This document shows positions 1 through 10,339 of a DNA stretch of 10,339 bases, piece by piece. The DNA is from Candidatus Hydrothermarchaeota archaeon (GTDB lineage: Archaea; CAYFZR01): the NCBI GenBank assembly GCA_046760505.1, contig JBHIEG010000044.1, forward strand, positions 1-10,339, read 5' to 3'. Each line of letters opens with the position of its first letter. Position 1 is the first letter of the stretch. Made by a program: the position numbers and the translations under genes. A model generated the notes under the pieces. The model had not been told where the DNA came from. It did not search any database and saw only the letters and a program-made list of their open reading frames with translations.

Positions 1-59
1 CTTTCAAAATTACAGAAAAGGGAATTGTAGTCTTTCCGGAGGAAAGAGTCTTTGACTAA
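1..59 (+). CDS. C-terminal fragment of a KaiC/RAD55-like ATPase (partial, begins upstream of the window)
   Basis: Not in the ORF track. The frame from base 3 reads FKITEKGIVVFPEERVFD* (TAA at 57-59), nearly the same as the C-terminus of the KaiC-like protein at 9046..9849 (LKITDKGIVVFPEEKVFGA*). Confidence 0.85.
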   Translation, partial: FKITEKGIVVFPEERVFD

Positions 60-65
60 GAATAT

Positions 66-71
66 GGAGGT
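66..71 (+). promoter_or_regulatory. Shine-Dalgarno site GGAGGT for the TTG start at 78
   Basis: GGAGGT ends 6 nt before the TTG. Confidence 0.75.
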
Positions 72-77
72 CAATTC

Positions 78-794
78 TTGGAGAAGGTTAACACCGGGAT
101 AAAGGGTTTCGATGAAATCTTGGGAGGAGGTCTTCCAAGAGAGTCAAACATCCTGATAGTTGGCGGTCCTGGCACCGGTAAAACGATGTTTTGCCTTCAG
201 TACCTGTACAAAGGCGCCTATGATTATAATGAGCCCGGAATATACATATCATTGGAAGAAAGAGAAAAAGATCTTAAAAGAAATGTGGAATCATTTGGCT
301 GGGACCTTGATAGTCTCATTAATCAAGGAAAACTTGAGATAATGGATGTGAGCACCACGCTAGTAGATGAGTACGAGGGATCCGATATTTCTCTCAGGGT
401 CATAGACATAGGTTCTCTCATAAATATTATCTTCGAGAGAGTTAAAAGCTTAAAAGCTCAAAGAGTTGCGATCGACTCAATTCCCACTCTTTTCTTACAA
501 TACGATAATCTCTCTTCTGTTAGAAATAATATTTTCAGACTTTGCAATCTATTATTAACAATCGGCTGCACCACCCTTTTATGCTCTCAAGCCGGTATCG
601 GTCAAATTGGAAAGTTTGGAATTGAAGAGTACATTGCTCAAGGAGTAATCGTGCTGAATCTCCAGAGATCCGGTGATAAGCTTGTACGATCTCTTTATGT
701 TCGTAAGATGCGCGGATGTGACCACAGTATGTATGTACATCCCTTTGAGATCACTCCTGAAGAGGGAATCGTTCTGGAGAAGATCATAAGGTGA
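78..794 (+). CDS. Single-domain KaiC/RAD55 (RecA-superfamily) ATPase, 238 aa
   Basis: N-terminal TGIKGFDEILGGGLP, Walker A GGPGTGKT, SLEE catalytic glutamates, Walker B VAIDS, GIEEYIAQGVIVL, and RKMRG arginine-finger motif. TTG start with SD. Confidence 0.93.
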   Translation: MEKVNTGIKGFDEILGGGLPRESNILIVGGPGTGKTMFCLQYLYKGAYDYNEPGIYISLEEREKDLKRNVESFGWDLDSLINQGKLEIMDVSTTLVDEYEGSDISLRVIDIGSLINIIFERVKSLKAQRVAIDSIPTLFLQYDNLSSVRNNIFRLCNLLLTIGCTTLLCSQAGIGQIGKFGIEEYIAQGVIVLNLQRSGDKLVRSLYVRKMRGCDHSMYVHPFEITPEEGIVLEKIIR

Positions 795-798
795 GATT

Positions 799-1506
799 AT
801 GGGAAGATCACTTTCTTTAATTTCAATGAAAGGAGGCGTCGGCAAGACCTTTCTTACATTAAATCTAGGAGTAATTCTCTCAACCACTGGTAAAAATGTA
901 ACTATACTCGATGCGGACTTAAAAAAGCCTGATTTAGCATCTTTCTTAGACATAAAGGTTTCTACCTCCTTGCACGATGTTCTAAAAAACACAGCCTCCT
1001 TAAAAGATGCAATCTACGATGGTCCTAGCGGGGTTAAATTAGTCTGTGGATCTCAAATGCTAGAAAAAATATTTAATGCCAACTCTGAGCAGTTGAAGGA
1101 GGTCATCACAAATCTCCAATCTACATGCGATTATCTCTTAATTGATACTTCTTCCGGATTCGGAAGAGATACGATTTATTCGATTTCAGAATCAGATTTG
1201 AGCCTTTTAGTCGCGGTCCCTACGATTTCTTCCCTGTACGATTGCATTCGAGTAAACAAGATACTCAAGGATCTCGATTCGAGGCCGATAGGATTCGTCC
1301 TCAACAGATTCAAACGAACTGCAGGATCAACGTTCAATGAAAAGAGTATTAGAGAAATCTTAGAAATTCCTTTACTCGGCGTAGTCCCTGAAAACGAGGA
1401 TGTAACGATTGCAGAGGAGTTTGCAAAACCGGTGGTGACTCATCGTCCAAACTCTCCACCTTCACAGGCACTGGTGAAAATAGCTCAAGAATTATCGAGA
1501 TGGTAA
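799..1506 (+). CDS. minD: MinD/ParA-family ATPase (archaeal MinD-like), 235 aa
   Basis: Deviant Walker A SMKGGVGKT with signature Lys, DADL switch I, LIDTSSG switch II, VLNR and LLGVVPE motifs. AAGGTGA SD at 788-794 overlaps the upstream stop. Family-level call only. Confidence 0.9.
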   Translation: MGRSLSLISMKGGVGKTFLTLNLGVILSTTGKNVTILDADLKKPDLASFLDIKVSTSLHDVLKNTASLKDAIYDGPSGVKLVCGSQMLEKIFNANSEQLKEVITNLQSTCDYLLIDTSSGFGRDTIYSISESDLSLLVAVPTISSLYDCIRVNKILKDLDSRPIGFVLNRFKRTAGSTFNEKSIREILEIPLLGVVPENEDVTIAEEFAKPVVTHRPNSPPSQALVKIAQELSRW

Positions 1507-1507
1507 T

Positions 1508-3046
1508 ATGATTGAAAAATGGCTTTTTTCCTTGGAGTATGACTCCAAGGAACTTAAAGAGATGCCAGACGTCAAAGCCACGGACGTCTCCGGTGAAGTT
1601 TTATTCTCGTCAGGTGATGTCGAAATAGTCAAACAACCTAGGGATCCATTACCGAGATACATTGTAAAATCACCTGAGTTGAGTAAAAAAGAAAAAGAAA
1701 TGATGGAAGCGATATTTGAGAACTTCTTAAGCGATTCTCGTATTAACATAGATAAGATACCAGAAGAGAGGCTTGAAAAAGCAGTGAAAGAAGAAATAAA
1801 GAGAATTTATCTTGAACTTTACCCCGGGTCCCCAATAAACGAAACTATAGTCCATCAGATAATGAAAAAAACTATAGGATATGAGTTTCTGGACGATCTC
1901 CTGAGAGATGAAAACTTGGAAGAAGTAATGGTCAACGGAGCAGATAATAATGTATTCGTGCTCCATCGGAAGTTTGGAATGTGTGAAACTAATATAACAC
2001 CTCCCAATGATGATGCCATCAAAAGAATAATTGATAAAATCGCAAGGAGGGTAGGAAGGAAAATAGATCACGCGAATCCTTTATTGGACGCTCGACTTCC
2101 TGATGGTTCGAGGGTAAATGCTACCCTTCCTCTAGTAACCCTGAGAGGTCCTACCATTACAATAAGAAAATTTAAAGCCGATCCTTTAACCATAGTAAAC
2201 CTAATTAACTTTAACACGGTACCCCTTGATTTTGCTGCTTTTCTGTGGCTATGTGTTGATGGATTAGGTATCAGACCTGCAAACATTATCATATCCGGTG
2301 GTACGGGATCTGGTAAGACCTCCACCCTAAATTGCTTGGCCATGTTTATACCTGAAAACGAAAGGATAATCACCATCGAAGATACTGCGGAGCTGCAAAT
2401 CAGGCATCGGCATTGGATACAGATGGAGTCTAAGCCACCTAACATAGAGGGGCGCGGAGAGGTTAAAATGGATGCTCTTGTCAAGAACTGTCTTAGAATG
2501 AGACCTGACAGGATCATAGTTGGAGAGGTAAGAGGTGCTGAGGCAACAACCCTGTTTACAGCAATGAACACAGGTCATGACGGGTGTATGAGCACTTTGC
2601 ATGCAAATACAGCAAGAGAGACTATCACACGTTTGACCAATCCTCCAATGAATGTGCCGCAAATTATGATCCCTGCCCTAGACATCATATTGATGCAAAG
2701 CAGATTCAGACATCGTGAAATAGGCACTGTTCGCAGAATTACTGAAGTATCTGAAATTGCTGGAATTGAAGAGGGCAAAATACAGTTAAACACCATCTAC
2801 AAATACGATCCCATAACAGACACGTTAAAGGAAACTGGCGTTCCCAGTAGAGTAAGGATGCAACTTGCAGAAAGTTCTGGTTTCTCTGGTGCCGAGATAA
2901 ACAAGGAACAGAAGATAATGGAAATTGTTTTGAACTATATGGTGATTAGAGGTATAACCGATTTGGAAAGTGTTCGAAGCGTGGTAAGGGAATACTACAC
3001 TGACAGACACTCTTTAATCGAGAAAATTCAAAGAGAGATACGATGA
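1508..3046 (+). CDS. CpaF/TadA/VirB11-family type IV pilus / type II secretion ATPase, 512 aa
   Basis: LEEVMVNG, DARLPDGSRVNAT, ITIRKF, Walker A GGTGSGKT, Asp box IEDTAEL, Walker B RMRPDRIIVGEVRG, His box TGHDGCMSTLHAN. One nucleotide separates it from the minD stop. Confidence 0.95.
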   Translation: MIEKWLFSLEYDSKELKEMPDVKATDVSGEVLFSSGDVEIVKQPRDPLPRYIVKSPELSKKEKEMMEAIFENFLSDSRINIDKIPEERLEKAVKEEIKRIYLELYPGSPINETIVHQIMKKTIGYEFLDDLLRDENLEEVMVNGADNNVFVLHRKFGMCETNITPPNDDAIKRIIDKIARRVGRKIDHANPLLDARLPDGSRVNATLPLVTLRGPTITIRKFKADPLTIVNLINFNTVPLDFAAFLWLCVDGLGIRPANIIISGGTGSGKTSTLNCLAMFIPENERIITIEDTAELQIRHRHWIQMESKPPNIEGRGEVKMDALVKNCLRMRPDRIIVGEVRGAEATTLFTAMNTGHDGCMSTLHANTARETITRLTNPPMNVPQIMIPALDIILMQSRFRHREIGTVRRITEVSEIAGIEEGKIQLNTIYKYDPITDTLKETGVPSRVRMQLAESSGFSGAEINKEQKIMEIVLNYMVIRGITDLESVRSVVREYYTDRHSLIEKIQREIR

Positions 3047-3069
3047 CTCCCGATAACTCTAAATATAAA

Positions 3070-3546
3070 TTAGACTCTTAATCCGGGCTTGAGGAGGATT
3101 TCACATTCTTCTCCAAAAATCTTCAGTTCATGACGATAATCTTTATCGCAGGCTAATTCGATGGCAACACAGAAAGGAACTGCCCTGCCACACTGAATTG
3201 GAATGTTAGATTCTTTCATCCAAGTACAAGCCTGTCTGTAAGGACATTTGCCTCCCACTTTTATGTGTACAGTATCATTCTCTTTTTTAATCTCGAAGTC
3301 GTCTTTATCAAGAAGACCTTCCTTATCAAATATCTCTACATAGTCTCTACAAGCATTGGTAGGATCATCGGTAGGATCAAGTCTTAATCCTCTTTTTTTC
3401 AAGTAAATTTTCACTCCTTCCGACTCAACTAAATGAAAGTATAGTTTTAGGTTTCCAAGTTGTTTGCCTGCATTTGCAATGCCCCATATCCATGCATTCA
3501 TTACATTGAGCACTCCTTCAAGAGTTTTAACCATGGCCCTCACCAT
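3070..3546 (-). CDS. Cys-rich hypothetical protein, probable V4R-like fold (MetOD1-type), 158 aa
   Basis: Helical N-terminal half, then a beta-rich part with CPYRQAC...C...C and terminal CEI, resembling V4R-clan proteins. AAGGAG SD precedes the ATG. The fold call is inference. Confidence 0.6.
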   Translation of the reverse strand: MVRAMVKTLEGVLNVMNAWIWGIANAGKQLGNLKLYFHLVESEGVKIYLKKRGLRLDPTDDPTNACRDYVEIFDKEGLLDKDDFEIKKENDTVHIKVGGKCPYRQACTWMKESNIPIQCGRAVPFCVAIELACDKDYRHELKIFGEECEILLKPGLRV

Positions 3547-3601
3547 CTTTTTCTCCTTAAGTTTGTGTTGGAACTTCTCATCCTACTTCGCTAATAACGA
3601 A

Positions 3602-3895
3602 CTATACTGGCTTCAGTATATCGACTCTGGTGAGAAATGAAAATCCAAGCCAAAACGATACAGATGTGAATATGAATACCAATTCCAACTGCTCCATCAA
3701 ATCCACATAGATATCAAGCCACTCTATAGTCACGCAAAGCCGTAGTACTGTTAGCGCAATTAGTGCGGTTAACGCAAAAAACCATATCGGGCTTGCTATA
3801 TAAGTTTCTCTATAAATCATTGACGCATAAATTGCTGCTATCAATGATGCTGTGAAACCAATAAATTCTATTCCCGCGATAATAGTTATGTTCAT
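3602..3895 (-). CDS. Small integral membrane protein, about 3 TM helices, 97 aa
   Basis: Three hydrophobic stretches (about aa 5-27, 37-57, 70-88). ATGA overlap with the upstream gene at 3892-3895. Confidence 0.8.
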   Translation of the reverse strand: MNITIIAGIEFIGFTASLIAAIYASMIYRETYIASPIWFFALTALIALTVLRLCVTIEWLDIYVDLMEQLELVFIFTSVSFWLGFSFLTRVDILKPV

Positions 3896-4158
3896 TTTAT
3901 CTTCCTCATTTTTTTATGGGAGGTATAACATGCCATTGCGAATATTATACAGCCGATCATTGCGCTAAAATGTTCTAAAAAATTAAATCCCGTTTCCCAT
4001 ACAAAATCCTCAACTATTGTAAAAATACTTTCCAGTAAGAGAAAGGTATACCCGGCAGTTAACCATCTCCATTTTTTATCCGCCTTTACAGTCTGTATCA
4101 TAAAAATAAAACCGGTTGATACCATTGCTAAGGCGAGAACTTCAGCTATTTCCACCAT
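3892..4158 (-). CDS. Small integral membrane protein, about 3 TM helices, 88 aa
   Basis: Three hydrophobic stretches (about aa 4-21, 30-49, 58-78), a basic first loop and basic C-terminal tail. AGGTGA SD upstream of the ATG. Confidence 0.82.
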   Translation of the reverse strand: MVEIAEVLALAMVSTGFIFMIQTVKADKKWRWLTAGYTFLLLESIFTIVEDFVWETGFNFLEHFSAMIGCIIFAMACYTSHKKMRKIK

Positions 4159-4189
4159 TTGCCTTCACCTGTCCATGTTCGTCCGCAAA

Positions 4190-4678
4190 TCATTCGATGA
4201 GTTTTAATAAAGCAGCCAGTAACTCTTCTACACCCTCTGCTTCGGTTGCAACGGTTCCTATAACTGGAATTTCTTCTGAAAGATTCATTTGGTCTCTAAC
4301 CAACCAAGGTTTCAAGGCTCCGTGCATATCTTGTTTGTTAGCAGCCACTACAAAGGGAACTTTTCTTTTCAATTCTATTTTATCAAGAATTTCTAACGCC
4401 TCTTGAAAGCTATCGGGGTCAGTGCTATCTACCACAAGTATTATTCCATGGATTCCCATGGAAAGAATCTCATGCATAAATTCAAATTCCCTTCTGCTCG
4501 GAGTACCAAATAAACGCAGTTCTAAGGAGTCAATTTTCCTGTCACCATAGTCAAAACCAATTGTAGTACCTAAACGCTCAACATGTAGGACTTTCTTGGT
4601 TAAAGATTCTACTAAGGTTGATTTTCCCGATCTATAGGTGCCGATCACTATTATCTTTATATCTTGCTTCGATCTCAT
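4190..4678 (-). CDS. MglA-like (COG2229-type) small GTPase with aberrant G3 motif, 162 aa from ATG 4678
   Basis: G1 GTYRSGKS, G2 TTIGFDYG, G3 GTPSRREF (canonical GTPGQxRF), G4 NKQD, G5 TVAT. Start is uncertain: GTG 4717, ATG 4678, or fusion to the upstream V4R gene. Confidence 0.88.
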   Translation of the reverse strand: MRSKQDIKIIVIGTYRSGKSTLVESLTKKVLHVERLGTTIGFDYGDRKIDSLELRLFGTPSRREFEFMHEILSMGIHGIILVVDSTDPDSFQEALEILDKIELKRKVPFVVAANKQDMHGALKPWLVRDQMNLSEEIPVIGTVATEAEGVEELLAALLKLIE

Positions 4679-5222
4679 TTTTTTTAAATTTTCTAAATCT
4701 TTTAACCTCAATCTCACAGTGTGAATCTTTTATTGCTCTACATTTGTTTTCAATGCCGTCTAAGTCTGTTTCAAATGTCTCAATTGCAACGCCTGTGATT
4801 AACCCTCGGAGGATATTGTCAGCAGGATATTTAGTCTTTTGAGATGTCTCTTCCAAAAAATAATCTGCTTCAGGTGGATTTGAAGACCTAACGATTAGAT
4901 GTTTCTCGTCAATGCTCAGCTTCACTATATCCAACAAGCCCCATCCTGCACTTGTTAGATATCTCAAAACAGTCCTTAACAGCTCTTCTGGATCATCTAT
5001 TTTTTTTCCTAACACTGTACCATCTTTGAATTTTCTCGTTAAATACTTGCCATCTTCAATTCCTGCGCTGTACAACACTGCTGCTGCACCTCTTCCCATA
5101 ATTTTTTCCACTTCGGTACAGAGAGTTCCCAAGCCCCCGGTTGAAATCACTATCGATCTAATTCCACCGACTCTTATAACTCCGTTTTTGCTCTCTTCGA
5201 AATTTATTAATTTTTCGATCAT
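4632..5222 (-). CDS. Stand-alone V4R-domain protein, 196 aa (start revised to ATG 5222)
   Basis: GVIRVGGIRSIVI hairpin, GxGAAAVLYSAG helix, GWG, RGLITG, ENKC...HCEI. The 44-codon extension in the ORF track overlaps the Roadblock gene; ATG 5222 lies just after that gene's stop with an AGGCGA SD-like site. Confidence 0.88.
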   Translation of the reverse strand: MIEKLINFEESKNGVIRVGGIRSIVISTGGLGTLCTEVEKIMGRGAAAVLYSAGIEDGKYLTRKFKDGTVLGKKIDDPEELLRTVLRYLTSAGWGLLDIVKLSIDEKHLIVRSSNPPEADYFLEETSQKTKYPADNILRGLITGVAIETFETDLDGIENKCRAIKDSHCEIEVKRFRKFKKNEIEARYKDNSDRHL

Positions 5223-5230
5223 TTTATCGC

Positions 5231-5614
5231 CTATAACGCCTTTAGTATTTCTTCTACTCGCTTTGCAGTTCTTTCCATTTGAATTAGTACCAATCCAAGG
5301 TTTGCATCCTTTTCTACCAACGTTACAAGTAAAGCCTCTTCTCCCGCTCCACATGAAACTATCTTTCCCTGATCACATTCTATTACTGTCTGAGAAAATT
5401 CTCCTTGCTCAAGTTCCTGAGCAGCCATCTCGCTTGTTCCTACTATAGCAGCTGTCATAGCAGCTATCCTTCTTGGATCTACGCCACCGGGTAAATCGTG
5501 AGCAATGATTAAACCGTCTCTTCTCACGATTCCGACCGCTATAATATCTGATAGCTTCCGTAGATCCTTTATCGCACCTTTAAGTTTTACCTTAGGGTCT
5601 CCTACCATTTTCAT
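5231..5614 (-). CDS. Roadblock/LC7 (MglB-like) protein, 127 aa
   Basis: IIAVGIVRRDGLIIA, RIAAMTAAIVGTSEMAAQEL, ANLGLVL are typical Roadblock/MglB motifs. ATG 5614 overlaps the upstream stop as TGATG. Confidence 0.93.
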   Translation of the reverse strand: MKMVGDPKVKLKGAIKDLRKLSDIIAVGIVRRDGLIIAHDLPGGVDPRRIAAMTAAIVGTSEMAAQELEQGEFSQTVIECDQGKIVSCGAGEEALLVTLVEKDANLGLVLIQMERTAKRVEEILKAL

Positions 5615-7146
5615 CAAAACCACTTTTTAATCATAAACTCGCAAAAATCATCACCTTTTCCCTGACATTTTGGCTCTCTACAAACCAGTTCTTCTAGTCC
5701 CAATGCACACTCTGTAAAACCACTCAAATACCCCCTTAGAAAGTGACATACGGACGATTCGGCCCTTCCTTTATAGGGGGCTGTCTCGAAATTGTTCTTC
5801 ACTCTAAGGTCTACAATATTTTTCTCTTTGTCAACGTTTATTTTATCGAGGTCAAACCATGATATTTGGGAAAAGTGAGATTTATAAGCGTTAATTTTCT
5901 CTTCCTCTTTCATTTTACTCCATACTTCTAATAGATAACCGAAACTTCTTCTTCCGCTTTCATGACCCACGTTATACAAAACTCCCGCTGCTCCCGTGCC
6001 GAGAGTTTGAGTTAGTCCTTCATGTAAGGATTCCAGAAAACCTCTAATTTCTTCTGCTGTTTGTCTGAGTTTTTCTTTTGATGCTTTCAACTCCTTCTCT
6101 GCTCGCTTGCGTTCTGTAACATCTAATAAAGAGGCTACGCTCTTTTTTGTTCCGGGAATCATAGCAACAGTTAGAAAGATGTCTTTAATCCTACCATGTC
6201 TGTCAATAAAGCGGAATTCATAGTTTCTCGGCGCAGCATCCTCATCAATCCTTCGAAGACGGTGATACTCTTTCATTTTCTCCAGATCATCTTTCAGGAC
6301 AAATTCAGTCCAGCTCTTTTTACCTTCTATTTCCTCTCTTGAATATCCACTGAGCTCTTCAAATTGGGAGTTAACCATGGAGAGAGTCGTATCTTCTTCG
6401 ATGATCACCGTCGCCGTTCCAGTTGATTCAAAAATTGCGCGGTATTTTTCTTCGCTCTCACGCAACGCCTCTTCCGACAACTTGCGCTCGATGATTTCAG
6501 CCTGTAATATCTCATTGATTTTTTCAAGCTCTACGGTACGCTCCTGAACCCGTATTTCTAACTCCTCGTGAGCTTTCCGCAGTGCTTCTTCCGCCCGCTT
6601 GCGATCTCTCTCCTCTCTATCTCTTTGTAGTCTCGCATGTAGCACAGGAGCTATGTGAGTAGCAATGGTTTCCAACATCTTCTGGTCTTTCTCGGTATAG
6701 TCAGTAGCCTTATTGGCGACCGCGAGAATCCCGATGACATTTTCTTGATGAATTATTGGGACAACTAGAACTCTGAGAATAGGAATATGTCCTTCAGGTA
6801 CACGCAAAGGCTTGTTCGAACAGAGAGTCTTCTTTTCTATGAGAGCCCGGCCCCAGATGCCTCTCCATGCATCGCGGGGGAATACGATGTCCTTGTCGGG
6901 AACTTTGCACTTTTCCCAGATTTCTCTGGTCATGGAGGGGCAGACTAAGGCTCCATCTTCATCAATGTATCCGAAGATCCCGTACTTGCTTTCAACGACT
7001 TGCAGAATGACCTGCAACACTTCTCCGTACATTTCCTCGTCTGGAATAGTGAGAAAGATATTTGCGATCTGGTTCCTTATTGCTAGCTCTCGCTCAGATT
7101 CCAGCAACTGATCCGTCTGCTTCATGTTTTTCTCAATCCTTTTCAT
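5614..7146 (-). CDS. GAF - coiled coil/signalling helix - PAS/PAC - V4R sensor protein, 510 aa
   Basis: GAF (VPEGHIPILRVLVVPI...GILAVANK...YTEKD), helix with VQERT, PAS (EEKYRAIFE...VN..FEELSGYSREEIEGK), PAC end DVTERKRAE, V4R (GAAGVLYNVG...CHFLRGYLSG...EPKCQGKGDDFCEF). No H-box or HATPase domain. GGGGGT SD-like site upstream. Confidence 0.92.
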   Translation of the reverse strand: MKRIEKNMKQTDQLLESERELAIRNQIANIFLTIPDEEMYGEVLQVILQVVESKYGIFGYIDEDGALVCPSMTREIWEKCKVPDKDIVFPRDAWRGIWGRALIEKKTLCSNKPLRVPEGHIPILRVLVVPIIHQENVIGILAVANKATDYTEKDQKMLETIATHIAPVLHARLQRDREERDRKRAEEALRKAHEELEIRVQERTVELEKINEILQAEIIERKLSEEALRESEEKYRAIFESTGTATVIIEEDTTLSMVNSQFEELSGYSREEIEGKKSWTEFVLKDDLEKMKEYHRLRRIDEDAAPRNYEFRFIDRHGRIKDIFLTVAMIPGTKKSVASLLDVTERKRAEKELKASKEKLRQTAEEIRGFLESLHEGLTQTLGTGAAGVLYNVGHESGRRSFGYLLEVWSKMKEEEKINAYKSHFSQISWFDLDKINVDKEKNIVDLRVKNNFETAPYKGRAESSVCHFLRGYLSGFTECALGLEELVCREPKCQGKGDDFCEFMIKKWF

Positions 7147-7201
7147 TCTTTACCCCCGTCACTTCATTATTTTTTATTTTAGAGATTTTGGATGAATTTT
7201 G

Positions 7202-8332
7202 CTAGTCGATTTTCATTATCTCGTGAACCAGCCTCTGAAGCACCTCCTCAACACCTTTAGCTTGAGTGGCAACAGTTCCAATTACAGGGACATCAAGTCC
7301 TATTCTCTCAGTGATCTCCTCTATCGATAGGGCATTGGGTAAATCTTGTTTATTCGCTGCTATTACAAGGGGCTTATCTTCTTCAGCAAGTTTTATCATC
7401 TCTTTGGCCCTTTCAAAACTCTCTGGGTCCGTGCTGTCTACTACGAGGACTATCCCCGAGATATCTTTCGCGAAGATATTAAAAATGAATTCAAAACGTT
7501 CCTGGCCTGGAGTACCGAATATTTCAGCCTCGATTTCACTTATCTCCGTGTAACCATGATCGAATGCTATTGTGGTACCCATTCTATCGATGCTAATCGA
7601 GTTAGGACATAGTGCTCTTATAAAAGTAGATTTTCCTGAGTGATATGGTCCGGTAACCAAGATTTTTGGTATATAGGGTACCAATCCATATTTCTCCTTG
7701 AGAATATAGGGTATCCAGCTGGTTCCCGGGATTAGATCGGTTTGTTCTATCCTGAACATGTCAAACCGAATTCCTCCTTTGTAAAATGACTTAAACTCGA
7801 TTACTCCATCAAAAAATTTCTTTATTCTATTCATATCGTTTTGATTCAAGCTCCAATTAGAGAATTTATAAATAGGAGAAAAACCACGATCCTTTGCTAC
7901 CTTATTTGCTAATTGAATAAACTCATCAAGATCGATATCCAAGTCGATGAAGAACTCGAGCGAATTAAAAACGATTCTTCCATTTTCATTCTTGCTAACA
8001 ATCTCAGAGAGTGTTGACAAAAGTTCAGAGGGGTCTGATGGATCTACAGCATATTTTTCCTGGGAAGGCTGTTGCATGCGTGGAGATAAACAATCGATTA
8101 CTAGGAGGGAATCGGTTATTTTAACACCAAAGCGCTCAAAATTCTCTTTAACTCTGTTTGGCCATCGGTAAAAATCAAGATAAATACTGGGCTCATTGTT
8201 TTTAACTCCTTCAGCAATAAATTGTTCTGCGAAAAGAGTTTTTTCAGCAGGGCCGTCACTATATAACAAAAGAGAACAGGGTCTTGGTAAATCACCTATC
8301 CGCTCATCAAGAGCTCGAATGCCTATTCTCAT
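7202..8332 (-). CDS. Fusion of a degenerate KaiC/RAD55-like domain (N) and an MglA-like small GTPase (C), 376 aa
   Basis: N part: GIRALDERIGDLP, decayed Walker A SDGPAEKT, IDC, decayed Walker B IVFNS, FDGVIEF. C part (from about 7670): GPYHSGKS, TTIAFDHG, GTPGQERF, NKQD, TVAT. Confidence 0.9.
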   Translation of the reverse strand: MRIGIRALDERIGDLPRPCSLLLYSDGPAEKTLFAEQFIAEGVKNNEPSIYLDFYRWPNRVKENFERFGVKITDSLLVIDCLSPRMQQPSQEKYAVDPSDPSELLSTLSEIVSKNENGRIVFNSLEFFIDLDIDLDEFIQLANKVAKDRGFSPIYKFSNWSLNQNDMNRIKKFFDGVIEFKSFYKGGIRFDMFRIEQTDLIPGTSWIPYILKEKYGLVPYIPKILVTGPYHSGKSTFIRALCPNSISIDRMGTTIAFDHGYTEISEIEAEIFGTPGQERFEFIFNIFAKDISGIVLVVDSTDPESFERAKEMIKLAEEDKPLVIAANKQDLPNALSIEEITERIGLDVPVIGTVATQAKGVEEVLQRLVHEIMKID

Positions 8333-8333
8333 G

Positions 8334-9056
8334 TTATATCTCCATGACTATCCCATTATCCGTTATCTCGAATGGAATCCATGAGGTACTATGCTTTACC
8401 CCTTTTAGACTAAAAATGCGGAAAGCGCGCTTTATTCCACTTTCACTTTCGCTCAGCCTTAATTCAAAGATACCATCAGCCATGTACCTGAGAGTTTGAA
8501 CTGTACGTTCATCATGGACTCCTGATTGCAGTACGCATAATCCCGTCATGCCTGATCTTTTAACTCTCGCTGAAAGTATCTCAAAGAATTTTATTATCGA
8601 TTGGGAGCCTGTATCGATCATGAGGTTTGAAAGGCAATCAAATACTAGTCGAGCGTTCTTCAATCCTTGTCTTGCGTCTTCGATTGTTAGGCTAACCTCA
8701 CTCAGATTTGAGGGGCTGTCCACGTAATATTTGGATGTTCTTTTGGATGAAACACGCCAAGAATAGCAGTCAACGAATCTGATCATGTTTTTATCAATGT
8801 ATTGAGATATATCCCACCCGAAAGACCTCATACCTGCTTCTATCGAGTCTATCGGCTCGTCAGTATGCACATACACCGCTGGATATCCTTGAGATAGACC
8901 ATGATACAAGAATTGCTGACAAAAGACAGTCTTTCCTGAGCCAGGAGGGGCTAAGAGCAAAATGAATAACCCTCTGGGCGGATCCCCTTCGATCAGATTA
9001 TCTACATGGGGGAATATAAGTGGTTTTTTATCCTTTCTTGCGTGTTTAAGCGCCAA
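8334..9056 (-). CDS. KaiC/RAD55-like ATPase, partly degenerate, 240 aa (start revised to TTG 9056)
   Basis: Walker A APPGSGKT, HTDE in place of the EE motif, VDCYS, Walker B LVFDC, MADGIFEL, FSLKG in place of KMRG. In-frame TTG at 9056-9054 has GGAGG (9066-9070) 9 nt upstream. Confidence 0.88.
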   Translation of the reverse strand: MALKHARKDKKPLIFPHVDNLIEGDPPRGLFILLLAPPGSGKTVFCQQFLYHGLSQGYPAVYVHTDEPIDSIEAGMRSFGWDISQYIDKNMIRFVDCYSWRVSSKRTSKYYVDSPSNLSEVSLTIEDARQGLKNARLVFDCLSNLMIDTGSQSIIKFFEILSARVKRSGMTGLCVLQSGVHDERTVQTLRYMADGIFELRLSESESGIKRAFRIFSLKGVKHSTSWIPFEITDNGIVMEI

Positions 9057-9849
9057 ACACCTTTTCCTCCGGAAAGACAACTATCCCTTTATCGGTGATT
9101 TTTAAAGGAAATAGACCTTCTCTAAATTTCATTCCTCTCATTTTGAGCACTTCGATGGCACGCATGCGTTTGTCGTTATGCCTAAAATTGTAAAGCACTA
9201 TGACTCCTTCTGTCATGAATTCTTCTATGCCAAAACGAGAGATCTTATCGCTCCCATAGGGCATTTCAGTGGTTACTAAAGTAGTACATCCAAGATCCTC
9301 GAGTAAATTAAACAAGCCTAGCAACTCCTGCCTTATTATAAAATCATCACTTATCTGAAGTTCCAGGGACGAGAGAGAGTCAATAACGATCCTCTTTGCT
9401 CTTGTTTTCTTTACTTTTTCTGTTATAATCTCAGTAACCGTATCTATATGGAACGGTTCACTGACGGTAAAAACAGACTTTGGTGCTCCAAGAGCCTCTG
9501 CAATAAGGGATCCATCGGGCTGAGTCTCTTTTTCAACCTGATATTGTTTTTGAGGTAATGGTGTTTTTCTCTTGGGTATCAGGCTCAACAAACCTAATTT
9601 GCCCATTCCTTCCAATTTTTCAAGGTCCCAACCAAAAGTCTTCATGTTCCTCTTAATTTTCTCAATTCTCTCTTCAAAAGTAACATATACGCCGTTTTCA
9701 CCTGAATTTATTCCAGCAATTAGAAACTGAACGCAGAATATGCTCTTGCCCGACCCTGGACCGCCGGATATGAGTATAATAGATTTTTCTGGAATGCCTC
9801 CATCAAGGATTTCATCTAACCCATCTATACCTGTGGATACCTTTTTCAT
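9046..9849 (-). CDS. Single-domain KaiC/RAD55-like ATPase with internal insertion, 267 aa
   Basis: STGIDGLDEILDGGIP, Walker A GGPGSGKS, TFEE, Walker B IVIDS, GIEEFMTEGVIVL, KMRG. Confidence 0.94.
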   Translation of the reverse strand: MKKVSTGIDGLDEILDGGIPEKSIILISGGPGSGKSIFCVQFLIAGINSGENGVYVTFEERIEKIKRNMKTFGWDLEKLEGMGKLGLLSLIPKRKTPLPQKQYQVEKETQPDGSLIAEALGAPKSVFTVSEPFHIDTVTEIITEKVKKTRAKRIVIDSLSSLELQISDDFIIRQELLGLFNLLEDLGCTTLVTTEMPYGSDKISRFGIEEFMTEGVIVLYNFRHNDKRMRAIEVLKMRGMKFREGLFPLKITDKGIVVFPEEKVFGA

Positions 9850-9876
9850 AGTCTTTGCCTGATTTCAGTATTTTGA

Positions 9877-9884
9877 AATTTATA
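9877..9884 (-). promoter_or_regulatory. Candidate archaeal TATA box (TATAAATT) for the KaiC-GTPase-V4R gene run
   Basis: Lies in the longest intergenic gap (73 bp), about 30 nt upstream of ATG 9849, which has no strong SD. Consistent with a short-leader transcript. No clear BRE. Confidence 0.4.
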
Positions 9885-9922
9885 GGTTATGAAGCTTGTG
9901 GGTAAATCGATAAAGATAACCT

Positions 9923-10339
9923 CTAATTTTCTAAAATTCGTAGTTCGGTTTCCAAAAGAGCCAACTCCTTTTTGTCCAAAGCCTCAAAGTCTAATGGAAC
10001 TATAAGGTTTGTATTTCTTTTAGAGACCCTGTCACGTTGGATTTGGAGAAATCTGAGCACTGATGTAAAGCCAATGTTTGTAATCAGATATTCCAAGCCA
10101 TCCAGCAGAATTATGGGGCCCTGACATGCTGCATGGGTTATAAAGCCACTAATTGCCATTGAAATCTCGTGTAGATTGAGTCCGACCGTCATTTCATCCT
10201 TGATCTTCATCTCAGTAAGCCAAAGGATAGGTGTTTTCTCTAGTCCATATGTTTTCCTCACCTTATTTGGCTTGGTCCTTGTAATAACTAAACCACATCT
10301 TCCAGAGGTAACATAATCAAAGAAAACGCCGTAAGCCTT
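9923..10339 (-). CDS. DUF835-like (inactive KaiC-fold) domain protein, partial, begins beyond the window
   Basis: The frame is open to the window edge: KAYGVFFDYVTSGRCGLVITRTKPNKVRKTYGLEKTPILWLT...IILLDGLEYLI...FTSVLRFL...LIVPLDFEALDKKELALLETE, matching DUF835 signatures as I recall them. The track start at 10261 is an internal GTG. Confidence 0.88.
   Translation of the reverse strand, partial: KAYGVFFDYVTSGRCGLVITRTKPNKVRKTYGLEKTPILWLTEMKIKDEMTVGLNLHEISMAISGFITHAACQGPIILLDGLEYLITNIGFTSVLRFLQIQRDRVSKRNTNLIVPLDFEALDKKELALLETELRILEN

Follow-up and report, generated by a model that had tools for sequence, protein, structure and literature searches.

A sensor-rich operon of KaiC-like, small GTPase and Roadblock genes beside a MinD–pilus ATPase operon in a Candidatus Hydrothermarchaeota archaeon

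Introduction

Do KaiC-fold ATPases, small GTPases, a Roadblock protein and putative sensors that are encoded next to a MinD and a pilus-type ATPase belong to one signalling pathway, or do two systems lie side by side? The question is raised by a 10,339-bp contig of a Candidatus Hydrothermarchaeota archaeon (GenBank assembly GCA_046760505.1, contig JBHIEG010000044.1), analyzed here over its whole length and referred to as the window. It is the entire contig C44 of an archaeal genome bin of 2.17 Mb in 142 contigs, and in the genome set used its phylum-level group has two members, this genome and a second species from its genus (the sister species, G001). An initial annotation of the window proposed a complete pathway, in which GAF, PAS, V4R and membrane inputs act through a Roadblock-GTPase pair and KaiC rings on a pilus ATPase positioned by MinD, comparable with the steering of type IV pili by MglA/MglB in Myxococcus. 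Our comparative analysis makes it likely that the window instead holds two neighbouring, separately transcribed units, A and B, the second of which is an ancient archaeal switch in a local form rich in sensors.

Results

Two convergent gene units on one contig

Domains were assigned with Pfam and NCBIfam models on the 14 open reading frames (ORFs) of the window. The genes form two convergent, closely packed runs whose stop codons lie 23 nt apart, and units A and B are therefore not co-transcribed. Unit A (plus strand, 3–3046) comprises the 3′ end of a KaiC gene, a complete KaiC gene, an archaeal MinD gene and the gene for an ATPase of the T2SSE family, separated by 18, 4 and 1 nt. Unit B (minus strand, 10339 down to 3070) is the tight operon of switches and sensors that the initial annotation had recognized, with gaps or overlaps of −86 to +73 nt and most neighbours either overlapping or 8–73 nt apart. 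Both contig ends cut genes, the upstream KaiC gene on the left and a DUF835 gene on the right.

Single contigs from four DNA runs of one study (X1–X4, of which two may be the source) span positions 26–9558 or 26–10328. These contigs bridge the junction between the plus- and minus-strand genes, so the juxtaposition of both gene runs is real; an assembly chimera at this point was ruled out by the same contigs. The composition of the window is inside the range of the bin, with a GC content of 0.402 (0.383 ± 0.013 for the bin) and a tetranucleotide distance at the 86th percentile among 156 chunks of the bin.

A KaiC-like protein, a fusion protein and a Roadblock protein form a conserved core

The gene at 7202–8332 (minus strand) encodes a 376-aa fusion of a dead KaiC domain with an MglA-type GTPase domain (KaiC 55.5 bits, Arf 56.9 bits). 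In the N-terminal domain the Walker A site reads SDGPAEKT and the acidic EE pair is lost, although the PF06745 score is still above the cut-off. The motifs of the GTPase domain are intact, with GPYHSGKS in G1, the Thr-Thr of MGTTIAF in G2, FGTPGQERF in G3 and NKQD in G4. The adjoining gene (8334–9080, minus strand) encodes a KaiC-like partner of 248 aa (PF06745 137.9 bits; DUF7504 43.9 bits) with an intact P-loop, APPGSGKT. The third member of the core, at 5231–5623 (minus strand), is a Roadblock/LC7 protein of the MglB/CvnB family (130 aa; PF03259 61.1 bits). Its profile matches archaeal Roadblock structures, CvnB5 (3leq, E 1.7e-14) and MglB chains in the Protein Data Bank (PDB), and with 28.2 bits against a cut-off of 200 for NF052242 it is not an MglB equivalog. 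This Roadblock is 48–59% identical to the two Roadblocks that adjoin the fusion in another archaeal locus, L015, and in a maximum-likelihood tree the GTPase domain of the fusion groups with that of the same locus.

The fusion defines a family. An exhaustive profile search of 1.84 billion representatives retrieved 218 proteins at E ≤ 1e-30, and among the best 150 of these, 96 are fusion-sized (340–430 aa). At most 8 of the 96 carry a Walker A motif ([AG]xxxxGK[ST]) in their first 90 residues, leaving at least 88 without one. None of 60 PDB matches is a chain that spans both halves. By simple pattern, GTPGQ occurs in 86 of the best 150 representatives, and several fusion-sized members differ at G3; judged from these motifs, hydrolysis-dead GTPase domains may recur within the family.

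Full-length fusions were found in 6 of 40 relatives searched, and contig C6 of this genome holds another. When one genome per species was scanned, 29 further archaeal loci covering both halves came to light; these, together with L043, which carries the GTPase half alone, make up the 30-locus set used below. The loci come from Methanobacteriota metagenome-assembled genomes (MAGs), Aenigmatarchaeota, Methanocellales, Methanosarcinales/ANME-2, Methanoperedens, Archaeoglobaceae, Hecatellales, Altiarchaeota, Woesearchaeota, Nanohaloarchaea, Parvarchaeota and Methanobacterium. Within 2 kb of the fusion and on the same strand, a Roadblock homologue is present in 26 of the 30 loci and a KaiC-like homologue likewise in 26, with both in 22; two of the four loci that lack a Roadblock are cut by a contig end. 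The neighbourhood conservation that the initial annotation proposed as a check exists for the core of unit B, which recurs across archaea, and was not found in other lineages for the linkage of the plus- and minus-strand genes. We consider it likely, in one judgement that covers our reading of both units, that the trio of KaiC-like partner, dead-KaiC–GTPase fusion and Roadblock is a widespread and ancient archaeal switch. No description of this trio, or of KaiC together with V4R, was found in full-text searches of a literature collection with incomplete coverage, and a literature search on the nearest Roadblock structures yielded no pertinent paper.

A set of 50 Chloroflexota loci (labelled Anaerolineae and related) also matched the GTPase motifs. 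By tblastn, two of them have a Roadblock; there was one weak match each to MinD, to KaiC and to the GAF-PAS-V4R sensor described below, and no match to the V4R-like protein or the pilus ATPase. The set was judged uninformative.

Sensors, a second GTPase and membrane proteins extend the core in unit B

Between fusion and Roadblock lies the gene of a 510-aa sensor (5614–7146, minus strand) with GAF, PAS and V4R domains (GAF_2 70 bits; PAS models 26–38 bits; V4R, PF02830, 45.4 bits, cut-off 31; TIGR00229 90.2 bits) and no enzymatic output domain. Roadblock, V4R-fold and GTPase genes then follow each other, consecutive and overlapping, from 5623 down to 4190. The V4R-fold protein (4632–5222, minus strand; 196 aa) starts at an ATG 8 nt past the Roadblock stop codon. 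It scores 20 bits with the Pfam V4R model, under the cut-off of 31, and aligns with the V4R end of the 510-aa sensor at 26% identity (BLASTP, E 7e-7). Its AlphaFold model (pLDDT 79.3) resembles, in Foldseek, the V4R domains of the phenol sensors MopR, PoxR and DmpR (TM 0.66–0.70; E ~1e-10, best 2e-10) and, with lower scores, Bet3/TRAPPC3 chains including a Thorarchaeota TRAPPC3 (TM 0.53–0.57; E 2e-5 to 1e-4). On the strength of the alignment and the predicted structure we assign it to the V4R fold in spite of the sub-threshold Pfam score.

The second small GTPase (4190–4717, minus strand; Arf 62.9 bits) stands alone and has 175 aa, or 162 aa when started at the ATG at 4678. Arf/Ras models score the small GTPase domains of both proteins at 57–63 bits. 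G1 (GTYRSGKS) and G4 (NKQD) are intact and G2 (LGTTIGF) keeps the Thr-Thr pair. The G3 motif, FGTPSRREF, replaces GTPGQ, and the protein therefore lacks the G3 glycine and the catalytic glutamine. In a motif survey 38 of 41 related GTPase domains carried GTPGQ and none of the 41 carried GTPSR. In the maximum-likelihood tree this protein has a long branch and groups with the stand-alone GTPases from contig C10 and from the sister species (support 97/96).

Two small membrane proteins follow on the minus strand. A hydropathy scan gives two clear, perhaps three, hydrophobic segments in the 88-aa protein at 3892–4158, which overlaps the next gene by 4 nt, and three in the 97-aa protein at 3602–3895. 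The model of the 88-aa protein is of low confidence (pTM 0.29), and in the Atlas search the protein resembles N-terminal membrane modules of sensor kinases. For the 97-aa protein no homologue was detected in this genome or in the 30 loci. The two show no significant similarity to each other and are not detectable paralogues. The final gene of unit B (3070–3546, minus strand) encodes a Cys-rich protein of 158 aa that has no Pfam or NCBIfam match and retrieved only itself in a search for homologous proteins. Its look-alikes in the Atlas belong to ATC-hydrolase, RdxA_C, MJ0207 and V4R-type clusters (TM 0.64–0.85), an alignment with V4R by hhalign is weak (probability 25%), and on the Atlas comparison the protein probably has a V4R/ATC-hydrolase/RdxA_C-like fold. 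Up to three V4R proteins had been predicted in the window: the C-terminus of 5614–7146 and, by fold, 4632–5222 qualify, and 3070–3546 is a candidate.

Upstream of the core, unit B starts with the C-terminal part of a DUF835 gene that leaves the contig (9923–10339, minus strand; PF05763 99.3 bits), followed by a KaiC-like ATPase of 267 aa (9046–9849, minus strand; PF06745 233.7 bits; GGPGSGKS, an EE pair and roughly 30 inserted residues). A DUF835 paralogue on contig C69 has an open frame of 534 aa. Galperin et al. (2018) describe DUF835 as an inactivated KaiC domain that is known in fusions with receiver and PAS domains. In contigs of three of the four runs (X1, X3 and X4) there is one extra T behind position 9968, in a run of five T. 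With this base the DUF835 gene would be read out of frame over its last ~16 codons; the version in the window fits the Pfam model to its final position.

How much of this is shared with other archaea differs from gene to gene. V4R-type ORFs, detected with a V4R profile built here, lie near the fusion in 6 of the 30 loci (L020 with three, L022, L023, L025, L026 and L032); in L023 the V4R gene sits between fusion and Roadblock, and in one relative (G016) a V4R-type gene is directly upstream of the fusion. Homologues of the 158-aa protein stand beside Roadblock and fusion in two loci, L015 and L028. For the GAF-PAS-V4R sensor, the second GTPase and both membrane proteins, no counterpart was found among the 30 loci, and we therefore take them for local additions. 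In L020 (9285–15833), from a Halobacteriota MAG, the genes form a tandem duplication in the order DUF7504, fusion, Roadblock, V4R, V4R, Roadblock, Roadblock, fusion, Roadblock, V4R.

Unit A is a pilus-type operon without its membrane partners

The first complete gene of unit A (78–794, plus strand) encodes a single-domain KaiC-like ATPase of 238 aa (PF06745 246.8 bits; Walker A GGPGTGKT, EE pair). It stays under the equivalog cut-offs for ArlH/FlaH (NF052589, 59.9 bits against 215) and KaiC; the circadian KaiC model NF006799 gave 212 and 198 bits in the window against a cut-off of 408. The KaiC units of the window are single domains of 238–267 aa, unlike bona fide circadian KaiC, which has two tandem RecA-like domains in about 500 aa. 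PF06745 scores above the cut-off and intact Walker A motifs are common to 78–794, 8334–9080 and 9046–9849. The next gene (799–1506, plus strand) encodes an ATPase of the archaeal MinD/FleN type (235 aa), which exceeds the subfamily cut-off (TIGR01969, 213.4 bits; cut-off 201.75), has the deviant Walker A motif KGGVGKT and also matches the Pfam models CbiA and ParA.

The last gene of unit A (1508–3046, plus strand) encodes a 512-aa secretion ATPase of the type IV pilus/archaellum family (PF00437, T2SSE, 173.9 bits). It had been labelled CpaF/TadA. The FlaI/ArlI model scores higher (306.7 bits; cut-off 550) than the TadA model (256.3 bits; cut-off 373.15), and both equivalog cut-offs are missed; by these profile scores the protein appears nearer to FlaI/ArlI and is placed in the broader T2SSE family. 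Its nearest homologues are 50–55% identical, with none above 55% in the searched genomes or metagenomes, and a metagenome scan with the ATPase returned two loci (49–50% identity), both with tandem ATPases and without KaiC or MinD. No gene for a membrane platform (T2SSF/ArlJ) or pilin was detected in the window with Pfam. Unit A is a KaiC-KaiC-MinD-pilus ATPase operon of a type already catalogued for archaeal type IV pilus systems: KaiC-family and FleN/MinD ATPases as well as the Roadblock arCOG02603 occur in archaeal pilus loci, according to Makarova, Koonin and Albers (2016; PMC4858521). The KaiC-like and MinD-like proteins of such systems are presumed to regulate the motor ATPase or to set its position.

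With these genes, the parts list of the initial annotation holds, all the modules that it named having been found. There are six KaiC-fold units (3–59, 78–794, 9046–9849, 8334–9080, the N-domain of 7202–8332 and the DUF835 domain), two small GTPase domains (4190–4717 and the C-terminal half of 7202–8332), a single Roadblock, and GAF and PAS domains that both belong to 5614–7146; the MinD assignment is sound, and the ATPase labelled CpaF/TadA is a member of the broader T2SSE family. The description as kinase-free is accurate for these 10.3 kb, as no HisKA, HATPase_c, receiver or HTH match was obtained in the 14 ORFs. Because both contig ends cut genes, it cannot be carried over to the system as a whole, and at a paralogous locus on C6 the KaiC genes have a receiver and a MEDS-PAS histidine kinase as neighbours.

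Fusion and pilus ATPase genes lie close together twice in this genome and in none of the other loci compared

The flanks of the 30 loci were searched by tblastn with the MinD, T2SSE, T2SSF and pilin proteins of the window and of the rest of the genome. No homologue was found in the ~364 kb flanking the fusion; 10 of the 30 loci have at least 5 kb of flank on both sides. None of the six relatives that carry the fusion gave a T2SSE match near it on the same contig, and no MinD, T2SSF or pilin homologue lies close to it in them either. None of the 19 nearest T2SSE loci of relatives has a KaiC gene within ±1.5 kb; in one of them a MinD gene begins at the edge.

In this genome the picture is different. 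Contig C6 carries pilin, PIN, T2SSF, T2SSF and T2SSE genes, an AAA gene on the opposite strand, and then a 114-aa ORF, a Roadblock, the second fusion and DUF7504; further on come two KaiC genes, a GvpD-like KaiC, the receiver and the histidine kinase. T2SSE lies 4.2 kb from the fusion locus in the window and 2.2 kb on C6, and the tree puts the C6 fusion in a clade separate from that of the window. On contig C5 (L122, 4511–8192), a T2SSE-T2SSF pilus operon is immediately preceded on its own strand by a KaiC gene and a TackOD1-HTH regulator gene, and a KaiC gene is found within 5 kb in three of the five close T2SSE paralogue loci of the genome.

The sister species has no DNA syntenic with the window, no orthologue of the window MinD and no full-length fusion; both fusions and both adjacent T2SSE genes are missing from it. 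The 18-kb region of C6 (L001, 412–17768) is likewise missing except for a tRNA-Arg at its end. This region looks like a tRNA-adjacent variable island. As far as the compared sequences go, a unit B next to a pilus-ATPase operon is not seen in other lineages. Against 0/36 elsewhere, two such neighbourhoods, both in the variable DNA of a single genome, do not tip the balance.

Contig ends and other features

The remnant at the left end (3–59, plus strand) consists of the last 18 codons and the stop codon of the upstream KaiC-like gene (translation FKITEKGIVVFPEERVFD followed by the stop). Read by eye, 15 of its 18 residues are identical to the C-terminus of the KaiC at 9046–9849. The KaiC gene at C8:1–705 is cut at the start of contig C8 and lacks exactly this tail, so that 3–59 probably completes it; the join is inferred. 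Contigs from all four runs break or branch at both window ends (1–59 and 10299–10339), and the 48-nt stretch 8–55, which corresponds to the conserved KaiC C-terminus, is covered at about double depth, with other contigs running on from it in a different way. Doubled depth and branching suggest paralogous repeats, or strains without the island. An Rfam search of the window found no known RNA family. Promoter and terminator scans gave no more than shuffled expectation, with bacterial models that are not relevant to an archaeal host.

Discussion

Relation to known systems

The closest comparison for the core of unit B is MglA/MglB. We examined the traits of MglA groups 2–5, which include the archaeal group 4, as they are set out in the survey by Wuichet and Sogaard-Andersen (2015; PMC4316618). 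The G3 sequence GTPGQ is present in the fusion and absent from the stand-alone GTPase. Both have Thr-Thr in G2 and no intrinsic arginine finger. A Roadblock gene is expected within four genes and is one gene away from each GTPase of the window, and this Roadblock shares the Asp-Gly pair (RDG). The survey centres on single-domain proteins of less than 240 aa, a size that fits the 175-aa GTPase and not the 376-aa fusion. Unlike in MglA/MglB, for which a role in motility polarity is established in Myxococcus, the GTPase is fused to a dead KaiC and a KaiC-like partner is added.

No histidine kinase or receiver match exists within the window to make it a two-component system, and neither HATPase_c nor DUF742 was detected in it with Pfam; only Roadblock and GTPase are held in common with the actinobacterial conservons CvnA–D at the level of domains. 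In conservons, CvnA is a kinase-like sensor and CvnC a DUF742 protein. The gene order of the window (sensor, Roadblock, small middle protein, GTPase) is like that of the conservons, which Wuichet and Sogaard-Andersen (2015) mention. Unlike conservons, the window has a sensor without a kinase-like domain, a middle protein that is V4R instead of DUF742, and an added KaiC scaffold.

With 31 KaiC matches against 3 receiver matches, the genome fits the signalling-hub idea. Makarova, Galperin and Koonin are said to have proposed KaiC-like ATPases as archaeal signalling hubs in mBio in 2017, and the window resembles that proposal in that KaiC and inactivated-KaiC genes (DUF835, DUF7504, MEDS-like) cluster with sensor domains. 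For unit A, the pilus loci described by Makarova, Koonin and Albers (2016) have KaiC-like and MinD-like genes directly upstream of the T2SSE ATPase, as here; the differences are that the window lacks a TadC/ArlJ platform and a pilin, that its KaiC is not ArlH and that its ATPase stays under the FlaI cut-off. A combination of Roadblock, V4R/Bet3-type fold and small GTPases also recalls the TRAPP core, Ragulator-Rag and the Asgard Roadblock and TRAPPC3 proteins, going by Tran et al. (2024; PMC10933270). Two GTPase paralogues, one of them apparently non-hydrolysing by its G3 sequence, would be Ragulator-Rag-like. Unlike in TRAPP or Ragulator, the V4R of the window is closer to bacterial ligand sensors and there is no longin domain. 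Of a TRAPP-like platform, in which a Bet3-fold subunit with GEF activity is bound to a longin/Roadblock dimer, the window has a resemblance in fold (TM 0.53–0.57).

How the switch might work, and what speaks against it

For unit B as a sensor-rich version of the conserved trio, we infer all protein contacts and the direction of signalling as follows. The dead KaiC domain would form a ring together with the KaiC-like partner or partners and so dock the GTPase there, and this docking would link the ATP or phosphorylation state of the ring to the state of the GTPase. A Roadblock dimer would set the GTP/GDP state, as MglB does for MglA, and the switch could be biased by small ligands that the V4R, GAF and PAS proteins bind. 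With its ruined switch II, the second GTPase may be a non-hydrolysing regulatory subunit or a competitor for the Roadblock, and the two small membrane proteins might tether or feed the module at the membrane.

Several observations weigh against this reading. In the profile search the GTPase domain is nearer to Arf, Arl and Rab chains than to solved MglA, which is absent among the best 60 of 648 matches. The canonical P-loop GxxxxGK[ST] is present in the KaiC-like partner at 18 of 32 loci, elsewhere having an acidic residue for Ser/Thr, and ATP turnover by the partner is therefore not essential everywhere. The likeness of the V4R model to phenol sensors would imply ligand binding and does not say which ligand or partner. 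Finally, the separation of units A and B depends on the lack of linkage elsewhere, and this genome has two such juxtapositions.

Those two juxtapositions, which involve fusions from different clades, speak for the integrated pathway of the initial annotation. With seven T2SSE matches in 2.17 Mb, chance adjacency within 5 kb has a probability of about 3% each under random placement, and the fusions and their adjacent T2SSE genes are jointly absent from the sister species. Parallels exist as well: Roadblock genes are noted in pilus loci (PMC4858521), MinD4 positions motility machinery in Haloferax and MglA-GTP stimulates pilus-dependent motility in Myxococcus. Set against them are the empty flanks of the 30 loci and of the six relatives, the convergent orientation of the runs in the window, the opposite-strand gene that separates the units on C6 and the lack of a platform or pilin gene in the window. 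Both loci moreover belong to variable DNA that the sister species lacks; accessory genes gather in such DNA for reasons unrelated to function, and the C6 region ends at a tRNA-Arg. A complete pathway ending at a MinD-positioned pilus ATPase is thus not what the comparison bears out; we regard it as rather unlikely, and control of unit A by unit B is to the same degree doubtful. Another reading takes unit B for a prokaryotic forerunner of the eukaryotic Roadblock/longin-plus-Bet3 platforms, TRAPP- or Ragulator-like, with V4R and Roadblock as a GTPase exchange factor. The consecutive, overlapping Roadblock, V4R and GTPase genes, the six loci with V4R beside Roadblock and fusion (between them in L023) and the model matches to Bet3/TRAPPC3, that of Thorarchaeota included, agree with it, as does the operon arrangement as such, which such genes do not have in the Asgard strain MK-D1 according to Tran et al. 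(2024; PMC10933270). The better fit of the bacterial ligand-sensor V4R domains (E 2e-10, against 2e-5 for Bet3) and the absence of V4R from 24 of the 30 loci make it improbable. A still bolder combination, decidedly improbable in our estimate, starts from the translational coupling of the Roadblock, V4R and GTPase genes here and their recurrence beside the fusion in several archaeal phyla; it would have V4R (Bet3 fold) and a Roadblock dimer form a ligand-gated platform that sets a pair of one active and one hydrolysis-dead GTPase on a KaiC ring, wired to the pilus motor in this lineage.

Cell division or shape, in place of surface filaments, would be the target if MinD were the link between unit B and its output. 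A hint in this direction comes from C10 (L002, 7155–8718), where the gene of the closest stand-alone GTPase paralogue (171 aa, GTPGQ intact) starts within the last 14 nt of an FtsZ-family gene (353 aa); a near-identical GTPase exists in the sister species, and the grouping with the window GTPase, well supported as it is, involves long branches. The operon partner of the MinD gene in the window is a pilus-type ATPase gene, and division genes are not part of that operon; it is another MinD paralogue, on C25, that lies near SepF, and no FtsZ, SepF or CdvB was detected in the window with Pfam, all of which leaves a role in division very unlikely. The absence of the locus from the sister species and the repeats or branch points at both contig ends might also suggest that the cluster serves in anti-virus defence or is carried as cargo by a mobile element. 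Matches in PADLOC are weak, at P-loop level (≤31 bits), the plasmid and phage collections gave no match, Pfam finds no integrase or transposase domain in the window and the composition is ordinary for the genome. In the lack of any convincing match, a defence system and a plasmid or phage origin were rejected, and we hold this reading to be highly unlikely.

Significance

Classical two-component systems are few in archaea, which instead possess numerous KaiC homologues and small GTPases of unassigned role. The idea of a KaiC hub, the pairing of MglA with Roadblock and the presence of KaiC and MinD in pilus loci are known already; in the sensor-rich form of the trio described here, one compact operon unites a GTPase with the Roadblock that probably regulates it, a KaiC scaffold and putative sensors of ligands. 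The window adds the richest sensor set among the loci studied here and a predicted hydrolysis-dead GTPase paralogue. Its pilus ATPase is a possible output, which the window does not establish. Were the ligand-gated V4R-Roadblock-GTPase platform real, prokaryotes would have an equivalent of TRAPP or Ragulator-Rag. Unit B provides a defined set of proteins for asking how these parts communicate, and it bears on whether control of GTPases by Roadblock and V4R proteins predates eukaryotes.

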